Positions 5,545 to 23,528 of a DNA stretch of 64,000 nucleotides are shown one piece after another. Positions within the stretch are counted from its first letter, which is position 1; each line of letters starts with the position of its first letter. The DNA comes from a virus. The DNA lies in IMG/VR virus record IMGVR_UViG_3300021957_000004; one strand, written 5' to 3'. Position numbers and translations under genes: made by a program. A model generated the notes under the pieces. That model had not been told where the DNA came from. It did no database searches and saw only the letters and a program-made list of their open reading frames with translations.

Positions 5545-7737
5545 ATGTTACAATCATCTATATTACCAAAATTACTAGCTAAGGAAGATATTACTATTAG
5601 ACATGGTAATTATCATACTGCCTGGTTCGATGTAAAAAATAGGGTCCTAGGATTACCTAATTGGAAAGATATGGGCAAAGACGTTTATGATCTATTATGT
5701 GGTCATGAAGTTGGTCATGCATTATTTACTCCAGAGTCTGGATGGCATGATAGCCCAGAAAAATTAAAAGGCGCTCCTAGATCTTACTTAAATGTTATCG
5801 AAGATGCTAGAATAGAAAGAGAAATTAGAAACACATATCCTGGTTTAATCGCTGCAATGCAACGTGGTTATAACCAATTACTTAAAAGAGATTTCTTTGG
5901 TGATATCTATAATTTAGAATGGGACCAAATTAAACTTATTGATAAGATTAACCTTAAAACAAAATTAGGTTCTATGATCGAAGTTCCATTTAATGATGTA
6001 GAACAAGGATTTTTAGATAGAGCTTTTACCAACAAAACTTGGGATCAAGTAGTTCAGTTAGCAAAAGACGTCCTAAAGTATACTCAAGAAAACCAAGACG
6101 AGCTATTACAGCCACAGGAATTACCGCAAGTTGTTCAAGACGTTATGGATAAAATCGAAGAGATGGAAGATAACCAAGAGCAAGAAGATCAGGGCCCACA
6201 AGGCGGTCATGATGATTATCCAGCAGACCAGGAAGAAGCTCCAGAGTCTAATGAAGGTGAAGAAGAAGTTCAGAATGCAAACGCAGAAGAATCTGAAGAA
6301 GAATCCCTAGAATCATTAAAAGAAAAATTAGAAGAATTATCTTCTCGACCAGAATATCAACCAGATGAAGATATATCTGTTACAGATGAAACCTATAGAT
6401 CTAAAGAAGAAGAGTTATTGGATCTCGGCAGAGATGGTAGTGGTTATACTACAATAAACGAACTAAGACCTTTTCATATTGAAAATGCTGTTATTGGATA
6501 TGACCAATTAACAAAAGAAAGAGAATGGAAAGCTAAGTACTTTGAAGAAGATCTAACTAAGGATGTAGAAAATTTTAAAAAGTATGTTAAAGAAACTAAA
6601 AGATCTGTTAACTTTGCAGTTAAAGAATTCGAGCAAAGAAAGGCAGCGTTTAGATATCAAAGAGCAACTACTGCCAAAACCGGTAGATTGGATGTTGGCA
6701 AGCTTTGGTCTTACAAAACTTCAGAAGATATATTCTCTCAAGTAACTACCTTAGCAGATGCTAAAAATCACGGTATGATTATGCTTGTAGATTATTCTGG
6801 TTCAATGGCTAATTCAATGCCTTATGTTATGGATCAGCTTTTACATATGGTTCACTTCTGTAAAGCTATTAATATCCCATTCGATGTTTATGGATTTACT
6901 ACACAAAACTCAGCATTCAAATATGACGAAACTACATTTACTAGCCAAATTCAAGATGGCGATTTAGACATGGGTGATCTTTCTATGCCTTTAGTTTGTT
7001 CTTCAAGCTTTAATAAAAAACAATTTACAGATGCTATCTATCACATGTACTTAAGAAAGGCAGATGATTACTGGGGATCAAGAGCACCTTTAGCTAAAAG
7101 CGAAGAGTATGGCGGCACTCCACTAGATCAAGCGCTAGTGGTATCTCACCACTTGGTTAAAGAGTTTAAGAATAAGCATAGAGTAGAAAAAATGAATTTC
7201 GTTACTTTTACAGATGGCGATTCAGGAACTATGCATGCAATCCAAGACGAAAAGATGGCAAGCAAAAAAGTTAGTTCTAGAAGTTATAGAGGCGAAAGAA
7301 TTATTATTATAAACAAAAAAAGAATAGAGCTAAATAGCTATAGAGCTACTGAGGATCTTCTTCAAAATATGGCTAAGACCCTAAACGTAAAAACAATGGG
7401 CTTTTTTATGGCAGATGATGCTCATCACTTTAGACAAAGAGTTGGTATGCTAGCACAATACTGTGATCAAGATATCTATCATAATGAAGATTTTAGAAAA
7501 GAATGTACTAAAGAATTTACTAAAAACAAATGCATCCACAAACCGAATGCTTTTGGATATGATAACTACTACTTGCTTAAAGGTGGTAAAACTCTATCTG
7601 CAGAGAATGGTGAATTCGAAGAAAAGGTTACAGAAGATATGTCAGATGCTCAGATCAGAACAGCGTTTAAGAAGTTTAGCAAAGGTAAGAAAACCAATAA
7701 GGTTCTTATGACATCCATTGGTCAAGCAGTTGCTTAA
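5545..7737 (+). CDS. Metallopeptidase-like (HExxH) plus VWA-domain protein, CobT-like partner of the AAA ATPase
   Basis: HEVGH, acidic linker, MIDAS DYSGS...T...TDGD. Confidence 0.8.
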   Translation: MLQSSILPKLLAKEDITIRHGNYHTAWFDVKNRVLGLPNWKDMGKDVYDLLCGHEVGHALFTPESGWHDSPEKLKGAPRSYLNVIEDARIEREIRNTYPGLIAAMQRGYNQLLKRDFFGDIYNLEWDQIKLIDKINLKTKLGSMIEVPFNDVEQGFLDRAFTNKTWDQVVQLAKDVLKYTQENQDELLQPQELPQVVQDVMDKIEEMEDNQEQEDQGPQGGHDDYPADQEEAPESNEGEEEVQNANAEESEEESLESLKEKLEELSSRPEYQPDEDISVTDETYRSKEEELLDLGRDGSGYTTINELRPFHIENAVIGYDQLTKEREWKAKYFEEDLTKDVENFKKYVKETKRSVNFAVKEFEQRKAAFRYQRATTAKTGRLDVGKLWSYKTSEDIFSQVTTLADAKNHGMIMLVDYSGSMANSMPYVMDQLLHMVHFCKAINIPFDVYGFTTQNSAFKYDETTFTSQIQDGDLDMGDLSMPLVCSSSFNKKQFTDAIYHMYLRKADDYWGSRAPLAKSEEYGGTPLDQALVVSHHLVKEFKNKHRVEKMNFVTFTDGDSGTMHAIQDEKMASKKVSSRSYRGERIIIINKKRIELNSYRATEDLLQNMAKTLNVKTMGFFMADDAHHFRQRVGMLAQYCDQDIYHNEDFRKECTKEFTKNKCIHKPNAFGYDNYYLLKGGKTLSAENGEFEEKVTEDMSDAQIRTAFKKFSKGKKTNKVLMTSIGQAVA

Positions 7738-7744
7738 TCGAAAA

Positions 7745-7810
7745 GTTACGTCACAATTTCGTGAACTTTTCAAATTAGGGGTTTACATCCCCTTAAAAAT
7801 ACGGTATAAT
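7745..7810 (+). promoter_or_regulatory. Early promoter with GTCAC-N6-GTGAA upstream element
   Basis: GTCAC 7750, GTGAA 7761, GTTTAC 7781, TATAAT 7805. Confidence 0.85.
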
Positions 7811-7845
7811 GGTACCTATATTTAAAAAGATAAGGAGTCTATATA

Positions 7846-8973
7846 ATGAATAACATGAAAATATCAACCCAAAGAATCTTAGAAGAAATTTCTAATAAGT
7901 TTCCAGGCCAAACGGATTTCCGTAGAGCCATAATCGAAGACGTGGCAAAATCCATGGGCTTTACCGCTAAGGATTTTTATCCTTTACTTTCTTCTGACAA
8001 CAGAGTTAAGATCGGTACTTATTCCCTAGAAGGATTATTACCAGAAGCAGCTCCGGCAGCTATGGACCAGGTCCCAGCTACTGCGGCTCAAATGCAATCT
8101 ATTACAAGCGATGAAAGAACTTTCGCTACAGTGGATCCTACATTCGTCCCATGGGGTTCTTTTAAAGATGTTACTCAGATTATTAAATCTGAAATGTTTT
8201 ATCCTACTTACGTTTCTGGCTTATCCGGAAATGGTAAAACTTTTATGATCGAGCAAGCTTGTGCTAAGCTCGGCAAAGAATTCATTAGAGTTCAAATCAA
8301 TCCAGAAACGGATGAAGATGATTTACTTGGTGGATTTAGATTAATTAACGGCGAAACAGTTTTCGCTAAAGGCCCAGTTCTAAAAGCAATGGAATCCGGT
8401 GCAATACTTTTACTCGATGAGATCGATAGAGCTACCAACAAGATCATGTGTCTTCAAGGTATCTTAGAAGGCAAACCAGTACTTGTTAAAAAGACTGGTG
8501 AAACAATTACACCTAAAAAAGGTTTCAACGTATTCGCTACTGCCAATACTAAAGGCAAAGGTTCAGACGATGGTAGATTTACCGCAGCTAGTATCTTAGA
8601 TGATGCTTTCTTAGAAAGATTTACTATCTCAGTAGATATGCAATTCCCTTCAGTTTCTGTAGAGAAAAGAATTCTACAAAAACATATGGATAAATTTGAT
8701 ACCCAAGATACAGAGTTTGTAACCAAGCTTGTTACTTGGGCAGATATTATCCGTAAAACATTTTACGATGATGGCGTAGACGAAGTTATTTCTACTAGAA
8801 GACTTTGCCACGTTGTCCAAACATTCTCGATCTTTAAAGACAAAATGAAATCAATCGATCTTTGTATTTCTAGATTCGACGAAGATACAAAAATAGCTTT
8901 CTTGGATCTCTATACAAAAGTAGATTCAGGGGTAGAGCTAGAAATACCAGGAGATGAAGATGCCCAAATCTAA
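7846..8973 (+). CDS. cobS: CobS-like / MoxR-type AAA+ ATPase
   Basis: GLSGNGKT, LLLDEID, ATANTKGKG, AFLERF. Confidence 0.85.
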   Translation: MNNMKISTQRILEEISNKFPGQTDFRRAIIEDVAKSMGFTAKDFYPLLSSDNRVKIGTYSLEGLLPEAAPAAMDQVPATAAQMQSITSDERTFATVDPTFVPWGSFKDVTQIIKSEMFYPTYVSGLSGNGKTFMIEQACAKLGKEFIRVQINPETDEDDLLGGFRLINGETVFAKGPVLKAMESGAILLLDEIDRATNKIMCLQGILEGKPVLVKKTGETITPKKGFNVFATANTKGKGSDDGRFTAASILDDAFLERFTISVDMQFPSVSVEKRILQKHMDKFDTQDTEFVTKLVTWADIIRKTFYDDGVDEVISTRRLCHVVQTFSIFKDKMKSIDLCISRFDEDTKIAFLDLYTKVDSGVELEIPGDEDAQI

Positions 8974-9242: not shown

Positions 9243-9773
9243 ATGAATGTAATACTTAATTTTTGGAACAAACACATATGGACAATAACATTTGTTATTT
9301 GTTTACCCCTTATATTAGCTTTTATTTCCCAAAAGGTATATGGATCAAATAGTGACATTGGAGAACAAAGAGTATGCTTAGCACAAAACATTTACTTTGA
9401 ATCTGCTAACCAACCTGATGCAGGTAGAGTGGCAGTAGCCCAAGTGGTTTTAAATAGAGTGGACGATTTACAATTTCCCAATACAATTTGTGGAGTAGTT
9501 TATCAAGCTAAGATGAGAACTAATTGGAAAGGACAAGAAGTACCTATCCTAAACCAATGTCAATTTAGCTGGTTTTGTGATGGTAAGTCTGATGAACCTA
9601 CAGATTCTATTACTTGGATGCAATCCATTCGTATAGCAGATCAGGTTATGTTTGATTTTAACTTTGATCTTACCGAAGGTGCTTTATACTATCACACAAT
9701 TCATATCGATCCTTACTGGAACGATTACTTAACCCCCACGGTTATTATTAATGACCATATTTTTTACAAATAG
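9243..9773 (+). CDS. Cell wall hydrolase, SleB/Hydrolase_2 family, with N-terminal membrane anchor
   Basis: CLAQNIYFES, VAQVVLNRV, FPNTICGVVYQ, CQFSW, HIFY. Confidence 0.9.
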   Translation: MNVILNFWNKHIWTITFVICLPLILAFISQKVYGSNSDIGEQRVCLAQNIYFESANQPDAGRVAVAQVVLNRVDDLQFPNTICGVVYQAKMRTNWKGQEVPILNQCQFSWFCDGKSDEPTDSITWMQSIRIADQVMFDFNFDLTEGALYYHTIHIDPYWNDYLTPTVIINDHIFYK

Positions 9774-9775
9774 GG

Positions 9776-9805
9776 ATTTACATTCAACACAAACTATGGT
9801 ATAAT
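9776..9805 (+). promoter_or_regulatory. Early promoter
   Basis: ATTTAC-N18-TATAAT. Confidence 0.8.
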
Positions 9806-9834
9806 AGTACCATTAAACTAAAAAGGAATATATT

Positions 9835-10506
9835 ATGCAATTATCAACCGACACAGTAGAAGTTCTAAAAAACTTTTCTACAATTAACCCAAACCTAGTT
9901 ATCGAACCTGGTCAAAAACTACATACGATCTCTGAATCTAAAACAGTTATGGCTAAGGCAGAAATCGTAGAAGACTTTCCTAATCAGGTTGGGATTTATG
10001 ATATGAATGAATTCCTTTCTGTGTTAAATCTAATACCAGGAAACAATATTGATTTCCACGATAAACATCTAACGATTTCTTCTGGACAACAGAATGTAAA
10101 TTACTTTTATTCTAATACGGAAATTCTAACTACACCACAGAAAGACATTAATATGCCTGATGTAGATGTTGGCGTTACCTTATCAGAAGATGTACTATCT
10201 AAAATTAAACAAGCAGCAAATGTTTTAGGACATACAGATTTATCTATTACAGGTAACGAAGGTTCTATCATAGCTAAAGTATTCGACGCAAAAGATGCTA
10301 CAGCAAATGATTATACTTTTAGTATTGAATCAGATAATACAGCTAAAGGCAAATTTAATTTTGATTTTAACATTGGTAACCTTAAGTTAATCCCAGGTGA
10401 TTACTTTTTAAGCTTATCAGAAAAGAAAATATCCCACTGGCAGAATATGAATTTCCCAGTAGAATATTTTGTTGCCCTAGAGCAATCAACAAATTTTAAT
10501 GTATAA
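9835..10506 (+). CDS. gp45: Sliding clamp gp45
   Basis: LKNFSTINPNL, GIYDMNEFL, YFVALE; synteny. Confidence 0.93.
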   Translation: MQLSTDTVEVLKNFSTINPNLVIEPGQKLHTISESKTVMAKAEIVEDFPNQVGIYDMNEFLSVLNLIPGNNIDFHDKHLTISSGQQNVNYFYSNTEILTTPQKDINMPDVDVGVTLSEDVLSKIKQAANVLGHTDLSITGNEGSIIAKVFDAKDATANDYTFSIESDNTAKGKFNFDFNIGNLKLIPGDYFLSLSEKKISHWQNMNFPVEYFVALEQSTNFNV

Positions 10507-16923: not shown

Positions 16924-17223
16924 ATGAAAAATATACAATTAGTTAGGCTTACATCCGGCGAAGAAATAATCGCTAACGTAGATCTAAATGGTATCGATAC
17001 TGATACTATAATCTTAAAAGATAGCATTGTTCTTATCCCAGCCGGCGAAGGCAAGATTGGATTTATGCCTTTTATGCCATACACTGAAGCTAAAGATGGA
17101 TTAGAAATTGATCTTAAGTTTGTTATGTTTATGGTCGAACCAAACAAACAGCTAGTGGAACAACACAGAGCAGCTACTTCTGAAATACAGATAGCAACAC
17201 CAAACACAGGAATCATAGTATAA
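16924..17223 (+). CDS. Sm-like conserved T4-like phage protein
   Basis: LVRLTSGEEIIA...FMPFMPY. Confidence 0.65.
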   Translation: MKNIQLVRLTSGEEIIANVDLNGIDTDTIILKDSIVLIPAGEGKIGFMPFMPYTEAKDGLEIDLKFVMFMVEPNKQLVEQHRAATSEIQIATPNTGIIV

Positions 17224-17624
17224 TGTCTAAGAACTGGGTACAAGATATAGCTTTAATGCATAGCAAATATGGCGTTAAACAATGGGTTGCAGATAACCCT
17301 GAAAAGCTAGAACAGCTATTGCATTTTCGTATATCATTCTTAAAAGAAGAATATGAAGAAACATTTAAAGCAGTTGGAGAAAAAGATCCTGAAGAAATAG
17401 TAGATGGTCTAATAGATCTATGCGTTGTAGCAATTGGAACATTAGATGCATTCGGTATTGATTCCGAAAAAGCATGGGATGAAGTACTAAAAGCCAATAT
17501 GAAAAAAGAAGTTGGAGTAAAAGAAACAAGACCTAACCCTTTAGGTTTACCAGATTTGATTAAACCCGAAGGTTGGACAGCTCCATCACACGAGGATAAC
17601 CATGGTAAGTTGCACAATATTTAA
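17223..17624 (+). CDS. MazG-superfamily (PRA-PH-like) dNTP pyrophosphohydrolase
   Basis: EEYEE...EIVDGLIDL, VLKANMKK, DLIKPEGW. Confidence 0.8.
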   Translation: MSKNWVQDIALMHSKYGVKQWVADNPEKLEQLLHFRISFLKEEYEETFKAVGEKDPEEIVDGLIDLCVVAIGTLDAFGIDSEKAWDEVLKANMKKEVGVKETRPNPLGLPDLIKPEGWTAPSHEDNHGKLHNI

Positions 17625-18519
17625 TAGCATTTATGATAACAAAACAGACAAAAGAATGGACTACGAGTCCTTCGAAGAGTTTGAAGCAGTCCTCGTTGGA
17701 CTACACAACTCTGACAAATATTCTAAAAAGTCTGAAGCTCCTCTTATCAGTCCTGCTACATATTTGCCTGATAGTACTCGTGCTAACGATAACGTGGTTT
17801 CTTGGGGCGGTTTTGGTATTCTTGATGTCGATGACTTTGTAGGTGAAATGAATGAGATCGAAAAGAAATACGAGCAATATAGATATTTCTGTTATTCGAC
17901 TGCTAGTTCTAGCTTAACAAATCCTAAATTTCGTTTAGTATTTCCTTTAACCCAATGGGTGAATAAAGAAGATATTAAACACTTTTGGTTTGCACTAAAT
18001 AAAGAAATCGGTGATATCGCTGATGCACAAACTAAAGACCTTTCCCGAATGTATTATGTTCCATCGCAATATAAAGATGCGAACAACTTCTGCTTTTCAC
18101 ACGATGGTGATATAATGGATCCGACAGTATTAATGTCTAAGCATCCATATCTAAATCCAGCAGAATCTTTCTTTGATAGATTACCTAATAAAATAAAAGA
18201 AGGTTTAATTGAACATAGAAAGTCACAATTAAAAAACACAAACTATACCTGGACATCTTATTTTGATTGTCCATTTGTTAATAAAAAACAGGTCGAAGAA
18301 TACAAAGGTATTTCCGGCACTGGTTGGTATTTAAAAATGTATCAGATAATGGTTTCAACCGCAGGCAATGCAATGCAACGTGGTTATCCTATTACTCCTG
18401 AAGAAATTGCCCATATCTGTAGATCTTTAGATATGGACACAGGTAATTGGTATGCAAAAAGAGATCTAGTAACAGAAGCAAATAGAGCAATCGACTTTGT
18501 CTTTAAAAATAATTTATAA
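17602..18519 (+). CDS. Archaeo-eukaryotic primase (AEP/Prim-Pol)-like protein
   Basis: LDVDD, YSTASS, PKFRLVFPL, KDLSRMYYVP; helical C-terminal domain. Confidence 0.7.
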   Translation: MVSCTIFNSIYDNKTDKRMDYESFEEFEAVLVGLHNSDKYSKKSEAPLISPATYLPDSTRANDNVVSWGGFGILDVDDFVGEMNEIEKKYEQYRYFCYSTASSSLTNPKFRLVFPLTQWVNKEDIKHFWFALNKEIGDIADAQTKDLSRMYYVPSQYKDANNFCFSHDGDIMDPTVLMSKHPYLNPAESFFDRLPNKIKEGLIEHRKSQLKNTNYTWTSYFDCPFVNKKQVEEYKGISGTGWYLKMYQIMVSTAGNAMQRGYPITPEEIAHICRSLDMDTGNWYAKRDLVTEANRAIDFVFKNNL

Positions 18520-18614: not shown

Positions 18615-18908
18615 ATGGGAATACAAGTACTAGGTGATAATGTTTTAATCGCCGAAACAGAAAAAGAAGAACAAACAGCAGGTGGGATTATTCTTACTGA
18701 AGCTATTGATAAAGGTAATAAACCAGGATTGGTATTAGCAATTGGTGATTATATCCAACAAGATAATGCAGATCCAGAAAACGTATTTGCTAAGATAGAA
18801 CCAGGAAACAGAGTGTTTGTTAAATGGTCAGAGGCAATGCCAGTTAACGTCGAAGGACAAGCTGCGGTATTAATAGATCGAAATCACATCAAAGCGATAT
18901 TAAGTTAA
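18615..18908 (+). CDS. groES: Co-chaperonin GroES-like (gp31 analogue)
   Basis: LGDNVLI, EQTAGGIILT, GLVLAIG. Confidence 0.85.
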   Translation: MGIQVLGDNVLIAETEKEEQTAGGIILTEAIDKGNKPGLVLAIGDYIQQDNADPENVFAKIEPGNRVFVKWSEAMPVNVEGQAAVLIDRNHIKAILS

Positions 18909-18913
18909 AAGGG

Positions 18914-18943
18914 GTTTACAAATACCTGAAACTATGGTATAAT
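18914..18943 (+). promoter_or_regulatory. Early promoter
   Basis: GTTTAC-N18-TATAAT. Confidence 0.85.
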
Positions 18944-18954
18944 ACATCTATATT

Positions 18955-19467
18955 ATGGAAAAATTAATCGAATATATTAACACCTTAGACTTAAAAATAA
19001 GTCAGGAAATGTTTGACCGACATGATGAAGAATATGCTACTACTAAACGTGGCTATTCTTCTCGTGCTAATCTGGATTCAGAATATCTAGAAGACATGGT
19101 CGTAGAAAATGTAAAAGGCGCTAAAGAAGTTACTGGCAAAGATAGATATTTTGCCGATATTAAATACAAAGGTATGGTTATAGACTTTAAAGAAATAGCT
19201 TCTGTTTGGTATAACTTACAACATGATTACATTAGATATATGGATGCTAACCGCAAAGGTAAGCTTACCCATTTTCTATTTTTTAAAAGCAATAGACTAA
19301 GATACGACAACAATCTTCCAGATGTTATCCCAGTAGATTATGATCTAAAGTTTGAATTTTTAGGTATTTACGATGTAGATACCGTTATGAGTGGATTGGA
19401 TAGAAACATGAAACGAGTGAATGTATATAATTTAGGAGACAATTATGGCAGGCGAATCAACATTTAA
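18955..19467 (+). CDS. Hypothetical protein, possible PD-(D/E)xK nuclease
   Basis: EYLE...FADIKY...IDFKEI. Confidence 0.45.
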   Translation: MEKLIEYINTLDLKISQEMFDRHDEEYATTKRGYSSRANLDSEYLEDMVVENVKGAKEVTGKDRYFADIKYKGMVIDFKEIASVWYNLQHDYIRYMDANRKGKLTHFLFFKSNRLRYDNNLPDVIPVDYDLKFEFLGIYDVDTVMSGLDRNMKRVNVYNLGDNYGRRINI

Positions 19468-20356
19468 AAAAGTAGGTATCACAGATACACTACATCATAG
19501 AATGGAAATACCAGAGGATTATCATGGTAAAGATATTATTATTGGTGATTGGTTGGGCGAAATATATCACACACCTACAGATCAATATTACACACAAAGT
19601 ACTAGATCACAATACTATTTTCCAGATGTAAAACCAGAAGGTGGATTCGATAAACATATTTGTCCAGGACATTGGTCTGGATATAGATGGGCAGTTCAAC
19701 AATTTACAAATCCTGGTGATTATGTTTTAGATCCTACAGTAGGTACAGGAACAGCAGTTGTAGAATCTATGAATCATGGAAGACATGGCGTAGGAATAGA
19801 ATTAGAATTCTCAGAGATTACAAGAAGAACAATTCAAGTACAAACAGACAGAGGTGCACCAGGTAATGGTACTATTATAGAAGGTGACGCTAGAGATCTA
19901 CACGAACACGTTGGAGATCAACAATTTGATATGGTAATTAATGGAACACCTTATCCAGTTCTTGGCGGTGGTCAATCAGATGCACCAGAAAGAGGTATGA
20001 CTTCTAAAGGTTTAGGAGCATCGATACAATATCAGAAAGATAAAAACGTTGGTGTTCTAAAAGGTAAAGTATACTGGGAAACCATACTAGAAATATATAC
20101 AGCTTCTATAGAGAAATTAAAACCAGGCGGAAAGTTTATTACGCTTATTAAAGATCCAACACAAAAGAAAGCTCCATGGTTATTACACAAAATGGTTGCT
20201 GAATTACTAATGGAAAATCTTCCAGTAAAACCTTATGGTACTTTTGTACACAAGCATTTGCCACAAACTTTGTTTATGAATACATATCCAAAACAATGGC
20301 CAGATGCAAAACAGATTCCCTTATATCAAACAGGTACAGTGCTTGAAAAATATTAG
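19445..20356 (+). CDS. SAM-dependent amino-methyltransferase-like protein with atypical motif IV
   Basis: VLDPTVGTGT, GIELE, GDAR, NGTPY in place of D/N/S-PPY, LKPGG. Confidence 0.75.
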   Translation: MAGESTFKKVGITDTLHHRMEIPEDYHGKDIIIGDWLGEIYHTPTDQYYTQSTRSQYYFPDVKPEGGFDKHICPGHWSGYRWAVQQFTNPGDYVLDPTVGTGTAVVESMNHGRHGVGIELEFSEITRRTIQVQTDRGAPGNGTIIEGDARDLHEHVGDQQFDMVINGTPYPVLGGGQSDAPERGMTSKGLGASIQYQKDKNVGVLKGKVYWETILEIYTASIEKLKPGGKFITLIKDPTQKKAPWLLHKMVAELLMENLPVKPYGTFVHKHLPQTLFMNTYPKQWPDAKQIPLYQTGTVLEKY

Positions 20357-20358
20357 GG

Positions 20359-20388
20359 GTTTACTTTTAACTAAAACTATGGTATAAT
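20359..20388 (+). promoter_or_regulatory. Early promoter, leaderless start of the modification operon
   Basis: GTTTAC-N18-TATAAT, 7 nt gap to ATG 20396. Confidence 0.85.
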
Positions 20389-20395
20389 ATACATT

Positions 20396-20743
20396 ATGAA
20401 ACCACTACACATACTTAAACAAGCCGCTGATCTTATAGCTAAGAAAGGCAATGACTACCAAAATCCTAAATCTAGGATTAGACAATCAGACTACTATCCA
20501 AATGGCGCACAAACCATTTTAGATATTATGACTGGCAAAGTTAATCGTATGCATTCTGTTTTGGATGCTATGAAAGACGATGAAAACTATATGGAAAACT
20601 TCGAATCACTACAAGATTCTGCAATAGATTTAATTAACTATTCTGCCTTCTTCTCATCATATTTAGATTATGATATTGACGGCCAAACCCCAGACAAAGA
20701 CATATTTAACAGGAACATAATCAGAGATGACAATAGCAAGTAA
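20396..20743 (+). CDS. Nucleotide-modification-associated domain 1 (Nmad1/DUF1599-like, MazG-like fold)
   Basis: KKGNDY...K..R...ESLQDSAIDLINYS. Confidence 0.7.
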   Translation: MKPLHILKQAADLIAKKGNDYQNPKSRIRQSDYYPNGAQTILDIMTGKVNRMHSVLDAMKDDENYMENFESLQDSAIDLINYSAFFSSYLDYDIDGQTPDKDIFNRNIIRDDNSK

Positions 20744-21458
20744 TTTAAAACTAGGATTACACGACTTAAGAAGTAATTTATTAAATCTTGGTTATGAAAT
20801 AGAAACCGAAAGATGGCAAGGTGGAACAGAACATCCTGCCTTCCTAGAAATATTACATGCAAGTATGAAAGCAAATATGTACGATAATGCAGAAGAAGCT
20901 AGTACAGAATTAAAAGCTACCCAACCATGGGCAGATATTCATTTCGACGAAAGAGTAGGTGGTATACCTTGCAATCCACCGCCATCACATACAATGTGGT
21001 TAAAAGACACAGATAAATATTTAATGGATACGGCTTTTTCACATAGCTATCCAGAAAGAATGTGGCAAGATACAGAACAAATGGGAGTTAGATTTAATAT
21101 AGCAGATCTAAACACAGCAGTTAAACTATTACAAAAAGAACCTAAAACAAGGCAATGTTATATACCAATCTGGTTTCCAGAAGATGGTACAGCCGCTCTC
21201 GCGGGCGAACGCGTCCCGTGCACGTTCGGGTGGCATTTTATGTTACGTGATGGTAAATTACATTGTGCATATCATATGCGATCATGCGATGTAATGCGAC
21301 ACTTACATAACGATTTATATTTCGCTAATAGGTTATGCTTATGGTTAATAGAACAATCAGGCTTAGATGCAGTACCAGGAATCATGCATTTCTCTGCTAG
21401 CTCTTTACATTGCTTTACAGTAGATAAATATGGACTTAACAATTTGGTAAATGAATAA
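20727..21458 (+). CDS. Thymidylate-synthase-superfamily enzyme with dCMP-type specificity residue
   Basis: Catalytic VPCT; MRSCDVMRHLHND has Asp at the position of E. coli ThyA Asn177; SLH. Confidence 0.85.
   Translation: MTIASNLKLGLHDLRSNLLNLGYEIETERWQGGTEHPAFLEILHASMKANMYDNAEEASTELKATQPWADIHFDERVGGIPCNPPPSHTMWLKDTDKYLMDTAFSHSYPERMWQDTEQMGVRFNIADLNTAVKLLQKEPKTRQCYIPIWFPEDGTAALAGERVPCTFGWHFMLRDGKLHCAYHMRSCDVMRHLHNDLYFANRLCLWLIEQSGLDAVPGIMHFSASSLHCFTVDKYGLNNLVNE
21192..21234. other. CpG-rich island over the TS catalytic codons
   Basis: gccgctctcgcgggcgaacgcgtcccgtgcacgttcgggtggc. Confidence 0.75.
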
Positions 21459-22774
21459 TGTGCGGATTTTTAATAAGCAATAGAACACAAACAACAGCTA
21501 ATGGAATGCAATCTCTTAAAGAGATGGAATACCGTGGGCTAAGAACTAAGTATCGTGGATATAAAACATGGAAAGATTATGATATGTTCCATACTGCTTT
21601 ACCTATGATCGATGCAGATCCAGCTATAGCAATCCAACCTATTCAATACGATGACGAACCACCTTCACTTTTTGTTGGTGAAATATTTAATTATAAAGAC
21701 TTTGGTGAATATGCAAGCGATGCTCATATGATACATCAAAGATATAGAGAAGAACTTTCACATGAATTCTTTCATAAGTTCGATGGCTTCTGGAGTTATG
21801 TTACATTTTTTAATGAACATCCAATTGCTTATACAGATTTCCTAGGTATTAAACCAATCTATTATCGTAAAGATGTAGAAGTTATGGCATCAGAACCTGA
21901 TGTACTAAAAGCCTATGGCCCAGTCACACCGGATGAAATATTCCATTCTAATGTTATGAAATGGGGTTATGATCCCCAAGGCGGAACACCATGGAATGAA
22001 ATACATCAACTAAAGCCTGGACACTTTTTATATAAAGGTCGAGAATATCCTTATTGGGATTGGGCTTCAGTTCCGGTGACCAATTTGTACGATGACCTAG
22101 CCTTAGCGGTTAAATTAAGATTAGGTGGATTCAGAGAAGCAGCCGTTCTACTGTCAGGTGGGTTAGACTCCACTATCGTATACCAACTTATTAAACAGCA
22201 AGGACTAAACGTTACAGCTATTCATGTTGATAACCACGAAGAAAAATATGCTAAGATGGTAGAAGCCGATTTAGTAAAAGTTACTTTAGAAGAGGTTAGC
22301 GATCAGGATGCTATTAGAATACACCAAAGCCCTGTAGATCTTGGATCAGTTAAACCACAAATTGCTATGGCAAGAAAGCTAAAAGAAGAAGGTTACCATA
22401 TGGTATTAACCGGCGATGGCGCAGATGAACTATTTGGTGGCTATAGAAGAGCAGAAGAATATGATTCTCAAATGTCAGATGTGTTCTGTGAATTACCTTT
22501 TTACCATTTGCCTAAGCTAGATAGAACTATGATGAGATCAACTGTAGAGCTACGTGCTCCATTCTTATCGCCAGCAGTTATAGTTCATGCATTATCTATT
22601 CCATACGAAGATAGAAACGGCGAAAAGAAAGTATTAAAAGAAACATTTAAAGATATTGTTCCACCTAAAATACTAAATCGTAAAAAAGAACCATTAAAGA
22701 CAGATGCTATACGTGAAGATAAAATGAAGCAAAGACAAATTAATAATAAAATATGGAGAGAGCTTTATGAGTGA
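21458..22774 (+). CDS. Asparagine synthetase B-like glutamine amidotransferase
   Basis: N-terminal MCG, GEIFNY, LGIKPIYY, LLSGGLDS, TGDGADELFGGY, ELRAPFL. Confidence 0.88.
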   Translation: MCGFLISNRTQTTANGMQSLKEMEYRGLRTKYRGYKTWKDYDMFHTALPMIDADPAIAIQPIQYDDEPPSLFVGEIFNYKDFGEYASDAHMIHQRYREELSHEFFHKFDGFWSYVTFFNEHPIAYTDFLGIKPIYYRKDVEVMASEPDVLKAYGPVTPDEIFHSNVMKWGYDPQGGTPWNEIHQLKPGHFLYKGREYPYWDWASVPVTNLYDDLALAVKLRLGGFREAAVLLSGGLDSTIVYQLIKQQGLNVTAIHVDNHEEKYAKMVEADLVKVTLEEVSDQDAIRIHQSPVDLGSVKPQIAMARKLKEEGYHMVLTGDGADELFGGYRRAEEYDSQMSDVFCELPFYHLPKLDRTMMRSTVELRAPFLSPAVIVHALSIPYEDRNGEKKVLKETFKDIVPPKILNRKKEPLKTDAIREDKMKQRQINNKIWRELYE

Positions 22775-23213
22775 TAAATGGGATAAAAGATACTTAGCTT
22801 TAGCTGAGCAGGTCGCTGGTTGGAGTAAAGATCCAAGTACGCAGGTTGGCGCAGTTGCTGTAAACGATCAAGGTAATGTTGTTGCTCAAGGATATAATGG
22901 ATTTCCAAGAGGCATAGAAGACACCGAATTAAGATATAATGACAGAGAGCTTAAATATAAATATGTGGTACATGCAGAAACAAACTGTATATACAATGCG
23001 GCATTTAATGGTAATTCATTAGATGGATGTACAATGTATGTTTGGCCATTACCAGTATGCCATGAATGTGCAAAAGCCATTATACAATCAGGAGTTTGCA
23101 GAGTTGTGTCCCCACAATTTACTAATTCCGAAACCGAGCTAAGATGGAAAGATTCATGCTCACAAACCCTGGATATGTTTGAAGAAGCTTATATCCAATA
23201 TGATTTCATTTAG
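22767..23213 (+). CDS. cd: dCMP deaminase
   Basis: SKDPSTQVGA, GYNGFPRG, HAE, PVCHEC. Confidence 0.93.
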   Translation: MSDKWDKRYLALAEQVAGWSKDPSTQVGAVAVNDQGNVVAQGYNGFPRGIEDTELRYNDRELKYKYVVHAETNCIYNAAFNGNSLDGCTMYVWPLPVCHECAKAIIQSGVCRVVSPQFTNSETELRWKDSCSQTLDMFEEAYIQYDFI

Positions 23214-23215
23214 GG

Positions 23216-23245
23216 GTTTACAAACACCTTAATCTGTGGTATAAT
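23216..23245 (+). promoter_or_regulatory. Early promoter
   Basis: GTTTAC-N18-TATAAT. Confidence 0.85.
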
Positions 23246-23276: not shown

Positions 23277-23528
23277 ATGCCAAGTATAAATTTAATGCCT
23301 AGGAAAAGACATCCTAAGGATAAAAGACCTTCTAGCCCAATGCCATTCGATATTGCGTTAAGAAAGTTTAGAAAGGCCTGCGATAGAGCAGGTATTGTTA
23401 ACGAAGTTCGTAAAAGAGAATTTTATGAAAAACCAACCGCAAAGCGCAAACGTAAAAAAGCAGAGGCAGTAGCCCGAACCAGAAAAGAAGAGCGTATGAA
23501 TAAACTAGGACCAGCAAGGAGATATTAA
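23277..23528 (+). CDS. rpsU: Ribosomal protein bS21 with N-terminal extension
   Basis: [10 protein letters not shown]...[23 protein letters not shown]. Confidence 0.92.

Follow-up and report, generated by a model that had tools for sequence, protein, structure and literature searches.

Why would a phage place a homolog of thymidylate synthase (TS), a relative of the asparagine synthetase AsnB and a deaminase of the deoxycytidine mono- and triphosphate (dCMP/dCTP) family in one run of overlapping genes? The question is raised by a 64,000-nt stretch of virus DNA (here, the window) from IMG/VR record IMGVR_UViG_3300021957_000004, in which these three genes follow a fourth, encoding a small all-alpha protein, at positions 20396-23213. 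The source of the window is a 130-kb IMG/VR virus contig of an estimated 72% completeness, and the contig-wide searches below have that scope. It is considered quite likely that the cassette serves to modify cytosine and that the AsnB-like enzyme participates in this pathway. On balance, although with distinctly less assurance, positions 19445-23213 together with the gene at 17223-17624 are read as one instance of a module that is mobile and confined to viruses; by its action a non-canonical cytosine, formed on nucleotides before replication and with an ATP-dependent amidation, would take the place of, or be added to, the deoxycytidine (dC) of phage DNA. That the target of the AsnB-like enzyme is the C5 substituent on a mononucleotide is held more tentatively, at a little under even chances. 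The cassette genes are:

20396-20743, + strand: small all-alpha protein of 115 aa, DUF1599/Nmad1-like (sub-threshold profile match)
20727-21458, + strand: TS homolog of 243 aa (Pfam Thymidylat_synt, 30.5 bits; cut-off 24.3)
21458-22774, + strand: AsnB-like protein of 438 aa (Pfam Asn_synthase, 114 bits; GATase_7, 30.9 bits)
22767-23213, + strand: dCMP/dCTP-family zinc deaminase of 148 aa (Pfam dCMP_cyt_deam_1, 76 bits)

The successive overlaps are 17, 1 and 8 nt, in agreement with an earlier note on this DNA that had described four overlapping genes.

The TS homolog keeps Cys146, Arg166, Ser167, Asp169 and Tyr94 at ThyA spacing (PC...RSCD) and carries the substitutions Asn177 to Asp, Leu143 to Arg, His147 to Thr, Gln165 to Met, Gly173 to His and Arg127 to Gln. 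Position 177 is placed in two ways, by ungapped spacing from the catalytic Pro-Cys and by MAFFT alignment with Escherichia coli ThyA, T4 gp42 and the Xp12 TS (sequences from annotated records). Both confirm the Asp in place of ThyA Asn177 that the earlier note had read from the sequence; it is the last residue of RSCDVMRHLHND (residues 185-196). This Asp and the other signature residues are invariant across 22 homologs with identities down to 52%. The C-terminal segment of ThyA is absent, as the protein stops 15 residues past His207, and the NCBIfam TS profiles score 19-33 bits against cut-offs of 108-405. An AlphaFold2 (AF2) model (pLDDT 85) has as its nearest structure the CMP hydroxymethylase MilA (TM 0.73-0.75), while the top PDB sequence matches are 9IQU/9IQC. 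Fused TS-like forms of 427-2000 aa were not found, which is weak evidence.

The residue at position 177 is informative, as Asn177 to Asp switches TS to dCMP (PMC8670742; PMC13326640). Among such enzymes, a Leu at 143 accompanies the formation of a methyl group and an Asp or Glu that of a hydroxymethyl group, while Asp169 to Asn is the mark of flavin-dependent 5-hydroxy-dCMP synthases (PMC13326640). Judged by residues 177, 143 and 169, the TS homolog is predicted to take a cytosine nucleotide but falls outside the three product classes that have been described. The dCMP type proposed in the earlier note is thus supported by Asp177, and the enzyme is likely to attach a one-carbon unit to C5 of dCMP. 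With T4 gp42 it has in common the Asp at 177 (Asp179 of gp42), Thr147, Met165 and Asn176; it differs by Arg127 to Gln and by an invariant Arg143, where gp42 has an Asp and an acidic residue is thought to admit or activate water. MilA shares the TS fold but likewise has an acidic residue at 143. The 5-hydroxy-dCMP synthases (RB69 gp48, DLP3 gp80 and HY126 AfhB; PMC13326640) also combine the TS fold with Asp177, yet their diagnostic Asn169 is absent here, where Asp169 is kept (RSCD). By its Arg143, Thr147, Asp169 and Asp177, the TS homolog is assigned to a dCMP-type subfamily of its own, outside ThyA, T4 gp42 and the 5-hydroxy-dCMP synthases. A separate canonical Asn177 ThyA stands beside the Asp177 enzyme in L088, a metagenomic T4-like contig, and in Microbacterium phage Huwbert, which argues that the Asp177 enzyme is not the synthase of deoxythymidine monophosphate (dTMP). 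In L088, two genes lie 2-4 kb downstream of the cassette, the canonical ThyA (7474-8334) and another gene with a weak deaminase match (9539-9919), an arrangement suggestive of two parallel pyrimidine branches.

Enzymes of the AsnB family adenylate carboxylates. The AsnB-like protein shares with AsnB (E. coli 1CT9) and human asparagine synthetase (ASNS) the two-domain architecture of an Ntn-amidotransferase and a PP-loop ATP pyrophosphatase, the N-terminal Cys1, Glu76, Asp98, the SGGLDS PP-loop, Asp351, Glu352, Lys429 and Lys449, and it also keeps Arg30 and Gly31; it is, however, some 115 residues shorter than AsnB. When 135 family members are aligned with E. coli AsnB, the PP-loop Ser and Asp are present in all 135 and Cys1 in 121. 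The acceptor site, by contrast with AsnB, is changed: Glu348 is replaced by Asp (134/135), Asp384 by His (135/135) and Lys376 by the hydrophobic Val or Ile. In the glutamine site, Glu76 and Asp98 are kept; Arg49 to Ala and Asn74 to Val are changes of the window's clade only, and Arg49 is found in 98 of the 135 members family-wide. In human ASNS, the counterparts of Glu348, Asp351, Glu352 and Asp384 build the pocket for the substrate amino group (PMC6748925). With this pocket changed, an acceptor other than aspartate is suggested, possibly one that still bears a cationic group.

With 192 clusters at 50% identity (E<1e-30), the AsnB-like family is a large one. It appears virus-restricted, since no match above ~31% identity turns up when 185,579 species genomes are scanned by pattern. 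Among 50,697 phage records, tblastn of the AsnB-like protein returns only matches of 23-27% to generic amidotransferases, and blastn of the cassette returns none. The protein also scores below the NCBIfam AsnB equivalog cut-offs (TIGR01536, 162 vs. 267; PRK09431, 108 vs. 499). The changed acceptor residues, the sub-cut-off equivalog scores and the virus-only distribution together argue that it is not an asparagine synthetase, as the earlier note had suspected.

Does the company kept by these genes extend beyond this genome? In a lineage sample of 80 IMG/VR loci with AsnB-like identities from 100% down to 56%, a TS-like gene is present in all 69 T4-like loci with enough upstream sequence; it lies directly upstream of the AsnB-like gene in nearly all, and ~420 nt upstream in L068, L069 and L071. 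A deaminase gene is directly downstream of the AsnB-like gene in all 78 with enough downstream sequence. This arrangement is far beyond chance. The gene for the 115-aa protein occurs in 46 of the 80 loci, usually next to the TS-like gene but at another position in a few, and a methyltransferase-like gene of the type found just upstream of the cassette is detected in 31.

As all 80 loci come from one lineage, remote relatives were examined on contigs with AsnB-like proteins at 31-44% identity. Here gene order is shuffled. In L083, a DUF2800/Enc34 phage, it is PRA-PH, DUF6378, methyltransferase, TS, AsnB, deaminase; in the DNA polymerase A phages L090 and L101, deoxynucleoside monophosphate (dNMP) kinase, AsnB, dUTPase_2, methyltransferase, TS, deaminase; in L087, DUF1599-like, AsnB, dUTPase_2, C5-methylase-like, TS, deaminase; in L086, deaminase, a fusion of kinase to uracil-DNA glycosylase (UDG), AsnB, dUTPase_2, methyltransferase, C5-methylase-like; in L088, TS, dNMP kinase, AsnB, deaminase; and in the short contigs L092 and L100, kinase followed by AsnB. 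The deaminase is found in all informative remote contexts. Identity ranks of the AsnB-like, TS-like and deaminase proteins are concordant across modules, consistent with co-inheritance. Constant membership in shuffled order, in unrelated phage backbones, argues for a functional module. The earlier note's treatment of the cassette genes as one unit is upheld by this co-travel. Judged from these gene sets, the module is larger than four genes, with a methyltransferase-like gene, a dNMP kinase and a dUTPase_2 or PRA-PH pyrophosphatase added in other phages. A dNMP-kinase-like gene is immediately 5' of the AsnB-like gene in L086 (as the UDG fusion), L088, L090, L092, L100 and L101, and this repeated adjacency points to a mononucleotide as the substrate or product of the AsnB-like enzyme. 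The L086 fusion (805-1959) is a protein of 384 aa, with an N-terminal dNMP-kinase-like P-loop domain and a UDG-superfamily domain.

The deaminase matches its family profiles well (PF00383, 76 bits vs. a cut-off of 25; phrog_174, 1.5e-45), and its translation includes the zinc motifs VHAETN (HAE) and PVCHEC (PCxxC). Where metaviromes had been enriched for modified cytosine, a TS, mostly of the Asp177 type, stands within 3 kb of 70% of the dCMP-deaminase genes, compared to 6% in unmodified contigs, and the next commonest enriched neighbors of TS-linked deaminases are PRA-PH and DNA_pol_A (bioRxiv 10.1101/2024.12.05.627091; PMC8670742). For several TS-linked deaminases, the substrates are 5-methyl- or 5-hydroxymethyl-dC nucleotides, and the activity provides deoxythymidine triphosphate (dTTP) (bioRxiv 10.1101/2024.12.05.627091). 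The earlier note had the deaminase interconvert C and U forms; the published TS(Asp177)-linked enzymes suggest instead that it draws on the modified-dC pool to form dTTP, or keeps the pools in balance.

The likeness to the Xp12 5-methylcytosine (5mC) pathway (mSCD) is close, in that a TS(Asp177) gene is followed directly by a dCMP-family deaminase gene and no separate dTMP synthase is needed (bioRxiv 10.1101/2024.12.05.627091). Plain cytosine replacement in the style of Xp12 or T4 has therefore to be weighed: the TS-like enzyme would form 5-methyl- or 5-hydroxymethyl-dCMP, the deaminase would convert part of this modified-dC pool to dT(U) nucleotides, and the AsnB-like protein would be an unrelated auxiliary metabolic enzyme for asparagine or another small amide. 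TS(Asp177) with a deaminase is the exact Xp12 arrangement, validated by experiment for 5mC and a 5mdCTP deaminase (bioRxiv 10.1101/2024.12.05.627091), and Thr147, Met165 and Asn176 are as in T4 gp42. The same TS subfamily (Arg143/Thr147/His173/Asp177, 33-42% identity) is also found in cassettes of cultured phages, including Mycobacterium phage Muddy (gp45-49, TS gp46), ~75 Gordonia phages, Microbacterium and Streptomyces phages and Serratia phage Serbin; there it stands beside deaminase, dUTPase_2 and thymidylate-kinase-like genes, and the Muddy, Gordonia, Microbacterium and Serbin cassettes have no AsnB-like or methyltransferase-like gene. We know of no published product for these cassettes. 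The Xp12 enzyme, however, has Asn143, Pro147 and Leu165 and matches at ~32% identity over the C-terminal half only, and Xp12 has no AsnB-like gene. The invariant Arg143 is unlike the Leu of ThyA, the Asp/Glu of hydroxymethylases and the Asn of the Xp12 dCMP methylase (PMC13326640). An unrelated auxiliary enzyme would, moreover, not be expected to travel with TS-like, deaminase and kinase genes in varied orders and unrelated backbones, nor to lack the AsnB acceptor residues, fall below the equivalog cut-offs and have no cellular member above ~31% identity. Plain replacement is thus considered improbable, if the strongest of three competing explanations.

The cultured-phage cassettes have a further conserved protein of ~270-340 aa that precedes TS (directly in Muddy and Serbin), in the slot between dUTPase_2 and TS:

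L093:4033-4926: slot protein, Muddy gp47
L094:3602-4630: slot protein, Huwbert gp65
L099:4192-5001: slot protein, Serbin gp51

Pfam searches of this protein give no credible match, with a sub-threshold RAP-1 hit in Serbin gp51 only. In L090 and L101, the methyltransferase-like gene fills the same slot. From its position, the slot protein is probably another enzyme of the same nucleotide pathway.

Other PP-loop enzymes suggest a second role for the AsnB-like protein. GMP synthetase, ThiI, MnmA and TilS adenylate nucleobase carbonyls, and weak ThiI/MnmA/QueC PP-loop matches are detected in the AsnB-like protein. It could thus be a pyrimidine 4-aminase that adenylates O4 of dTMP or of a 5-substituted deoxyuridine monophosphate (dUMP) and adds a nitrogen from glutamine or ammonia, as a second route to 5-substituted dCMP balanced by the deaminase. 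The tight linkage to the deaminase (the reverse reaction) and to the dNMP kinase fits such a role, as does the finding that searches of the 130-kb contig detect neither a second ThyA nor a ThyX. Yet no member of the AsnB branch is, to our knowledge, active on a lactam oxygen; the TS-like enzyme is predicted to use dCMP directly already; and a 4-aminase run beside the deaminase would form a futile cycle. In addition, the acidic pocket that is retained (Asp348, Asp351 and Glu352) binds the substrate ammonium in ASNS (PMC6748925), whereas a dUMP derivative has none. A 4-aminase is therefore regarded as unlikely, slightly more so than plain replacement.

A third role is suggested by CmoY of Synechococcus phage S-B43, an AsnB homolog that ligates glycine to 5-carboxymethylcytosine in DNA, and by a further, putative ligase cluster on CmoX contigs that retains the glutaminase domain (PMC12783734). 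The CmoA/CmoX/CmoY system resembles the pathway proposed here in recruiting an ATP-dependent AsnB-family enzyme to amidate a C5-modified cytosine. It differs in that a C5-methylase homolog of S-B43 uses carboxy-S-adenosylmethionine (carboxy-SAM) to install the handle on DNA, while the partner here is a TS-fold nucleotide enzyme. S-B43 is not reached by tblastn of the AsnB-like protein at E 1e-5. If the AsnB-like protein were to act after replication like CmoY, it would amidate a carboxyl-bearing base from another enzyme, such as the methyltransferase-like protein with carboxy-SAM, and the TS-like enzyme and deaminase would only supply nucleotides. The methyltransferase-like gene is indeed a recurrent partner, and C5-methylase-like genes are near the AsnB-like gene in L086 and L087. 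The latter (L086:5673-6839 and L087:7961-9172), however, read H(T/P)ECG and not the SPPC that defines CmoX or the canonical PCQ, and may represent a third kind of C5 transferase. C5-methylase (PF00145) and CmoA (TIGR00740) have zero matches across the 130-kb contig, and the methyltransferase-like gene is undetected in many T4-like loci that keep the trio. The recurrent dNMP kinase beside the AsnB-like gene argues for a mononucleotide, and the acidic character of the protein (isoelectric point 5.7) also speaks against action on DNA. Of the three alternatives, this one is given the least credence and is thought doubtful.

The nucleotide-level pathway favored here would draw on genes beyond the four of the cassette. 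The cassette falls between a primase-like gene and uvsX of an uncultured marine T4-like phage, and every gene listed here is on the + strand; the UvsX proteins of this phage and of phage C48C1, which is filed under Kyanoviridae, share 73% identity. The surrounding features are:

17223-17624, + strand: PRA-PH/MazG-type NTP pyrophosphohydrolase of 133 aa (Pfam PRA-PH, E 1.6e-10)
17602-18519, + strand: primase-like gene
18615-18908, + strand: GroES-like ORF of 97 aa (likeness to the GroES co-chaperonin by eye)
18915-18943, + strand: promoter-like site TTTACA-17-TATAAT with TG (11/12 consensus positions; consensus match only)
18955-19467, + strand: ORF of 170 aa
19445-20356, + strand: S-adenosylmethionine-dependent N-methyltransferase-like gene, 303 aa (Pfam N6_N4_Mtase)
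20360-20388, + strand: promoter-like site TTTACT-17 nt-TG-n-TATAAT, extended -10 (10/12 consensus positions; consensus match only)
23217-23245: promoter-like site, near-consensus sigma-70-like, extended -10 (TG)
23277-23528, + strand: ribosomal protein S21 (Pfam, 62 bits)

The protein at 17223-17624 is a candidate dCTPase that would feed dCMP into the pathway, and the cassette of L083, an unrelated phage contig, contains a homolog (37% identity). The 115-aa protein had been named Nmad1 in the earlier note. A DUF1599 (PF07659) match is found at 20396-20743, but at 15.2 bits (E 0.028) against a cut-off of 25 the label is sub-threshold, and the gene at 17223-17624 is the clearer MazG/PRA-PH pyrophosphatase. 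By hhalign, the 115-aa protein matches the 143-aa gene product just upstream of the L087 AsnB-like gene (E 9e-5, across an ES..DS..D..NY motif), while alignments of its family to the L083 DUF6378 protein and the L090 dUTPase_2 protein are unsupported. Its AF2 model (pLDDT 88) is a four-helix bundle with the dCTPase DCTPP1 and PRA-PH as top Foldseek matches (E ~0.2); VIA-align places MazG-type 4qgp and 2a3q at Z 6.5-7, which is level with unrelated helical hairpins and thus uninformative. The acidic residues noted by eye (E70, D74 and D78) do not match the canonical MazG ExxE...ExxD pattern. A MazG-like fold is possible, and the protein may be a pyrophosphatase or a nucleotide-binding accessory.

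The methyltransferase-like gene is a likely accessory member of the module, as judged from its recurrence. The protein matches PF01555 (N6_N4_Mtase) at 33.6 bits (cut-off 26.7) over motif I only; motif I (VLDPTVGTGT) is conserved, and motif IV is GTPYP in the window's copy but PPYS in remote orthologs, with Pro169 and Tyr170 invariant. Full-length orthologs (33-37% identity) are inside the L083, L086 and L090 cassettes, and an N6_N4_Mtase gene holds the same slot in L101. Most orthologs have an N-terminal Cys cluster (DYHCxCxxC...HICPGHW), of which the window's copy lacks the first cysteines (DYHGK-DIIIG).

The promoter-like sites bear on the transcription of these genes. The site at 20360-20388 falls inside the 39-nt gap that precedes the first cassette ATG, and the site at 18915-18943 precedes the 170-aa ORF and methyltransferase-like gene. 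As sites just as good occur at 18915 and 23217, the four cassette genes form one bracketed unit, and the three extended -10 sites divide the region into three. The earlier note had given the cassette its own early promoter: the sigma-70-like site is present at 20360-20388, while "early" is suggested by the sigma-70-like consensus. The ATG at 20396 is 7 nt past the -10 hexamer, so the cassette mRNA may be leaderless or nearly so. The S21 and GroES-like genes flank the cassette, and S21 is found in 45 of 80 related loci.

How far does the pathway resemble that of T4? In T4, dC is converted to hydroxymethylcytosine (hmC) by the gp56 dCTPase, the gp42 dCMP hydroxymethylase and the gp1 dNMP kinase, with the cd deaminase alongside. 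The module has counterparts in a pyrophosphatase, an Asp177 TS-fold enzyme predicted to act on dCMP, a dNMP kinase (in other module copies) and a dCMP-family deaminase. Location is also similar, in that gene 42 lies between gene 43 (DNA polymerase) and uvsX. The differences are the addition of the AsnB-like amidotransferase and N-methyltransferase-like gene, the lack of a glucosyltransferase and of a detected kinase in the 130-kb contig, and pyrophosphatases limited to the MazG/PRA-PH and DUF1599-like proteins. Searches of the contig for GT1 and GT2 glycosyltransferases are negative, in keeping with the earlier note's view that this is not the T4 glucosyl-hmC route; since CmoA and C5-methylase are likewise not found there, the pathway is taken to follow neither CmoX nor T4 glucosylation. 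Phage C48C1, the closest named relative, has a nucleotide-sugar epimerase and a UDP-glucose dehydrogenase in its primase-uvsX slot (OQ984149.1, 35326-37226) and no trio; the slot thus appears to be a hot spot for DNA- or envelope-modifying cargo. Sugar chemistry of a glucuronamide type was considered and rejected, as the present genome has neither the C48C1-type sugar-nucleotide genes nor a glycosyltransferase, and C48C1 is without the trio.

The order of reactions that we infer from gene set, residues and co-occurrence is as follows. A phage pyrophosphatase would convert dCTP to dCMP. The TS-fold enzyme would bind dCMP, with Cys146 attacking C6 and a one-carbon unit placed on C5, the retained Asp169 and Trp80 suggesting methylene-tetrahydrofolate as cofactor. 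With no ThyA C-terminal lid and an Arg instead of Leu at 143, the product is probably not a plain methyl. The AsnB-like enzyme would then use ATP at its PP-loop to adenylate an oxygen function of the modified nucleotide and swap in a nitrogen from glutamine or free ammonia, to give an amide- or amine-bearing cytosine. A dedicated dNMP kinase, as found in other phages, followed by host enzymes would form the triphosphate for the phage polymerase. The deaminase would drain (modified) dC nucleotides toward dU/dT, which fits an AT-rich phage in whose contig ThyA and ThyX are not found, and the methyltransferase-like protein may provide an optional tailoring or a DNA-level step.

Several observations weigh against this pathway. 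Thymidylate kinase, T4 gp1-like kinase and dNMP kinase are not found in the 130-kb contig. Glutamine use by the window's clade is uncertain given the loss of the glutamine-binding Arg49 and Asn74, and the amidation step would need new chemistry or an unseen step, as the cassette has no obvious maker of a carboxylate. The TS-like product may be complete on its own, given that the Muddy, Gordonia and Serbin cassettes do without an AsnB-like gene; all instances of the AsnB-like gene are metagenomic, with none in cultured phages among the 50,697 records. GATase_7 is not enriched in modified contigs of MetaGPA (PMC8670742 supplement). Adjacency within the T4-like phages may reflect an inherited gene order, which leaves about six independent remote contexts to carry the functional argument.

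The aminomethyl, carboxamide and re-amination chemistries suggested in the earlier note are conjectural. A more specific chemistry can be put forward, although it is speculative and rather unlikely. Rather than release a methyl or hydroxymethyl product, the Arg143 TS-like enzyme would let a nitrogen nucleophile or an anionic co-substrate (e.g., an amino acid) capture the exocyclic-methylene intermediate; alternatively, its hydroxymethyl product would be adenylated. The AsnB-like enzyme would then make the amide or amine to yield a new DNA base. By analogy with the nm5/mnm5/cmnm5 uridine chemistry of tRNA, such bases would include, for example, 5-aminomethyl-, 5-carbamoyl- and 5-(carbamoylmethylaminomethyl)-cytosine, with optional N-methylation by the NPPY-type methyltransferase.

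TS-based pyrimidine hypermodification in phages with an AsnB-family tailoring enzyme is known; a literature search found no description of the present gene combination, the TS-like/AsnB-like phage cassette, or of its product. Two well-studied enzyme folds are paired here with no described product, in a cassette that is abundant, with hundreds of protein clusters, many of them from marine and freshwater viromes, and that is spread over several phage lineages. Hypermodifications of phage DNA determine how far a virus is readable by restriction enzymes, CRISPR nucleases and sequencing chemistries, and are a repeated source of enzymes for biotechnology. If a new amide- or amine-bearing cytosine is indeed made, the natural repertoire of DNA would gain a base and the asparagine synthetase family a new reaction. 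Given how often marine T4-like phages carry the cassette, ocean viromes would be rich in such a base, which might explain biases in their analysis by sequencing- and restriction-based methods.

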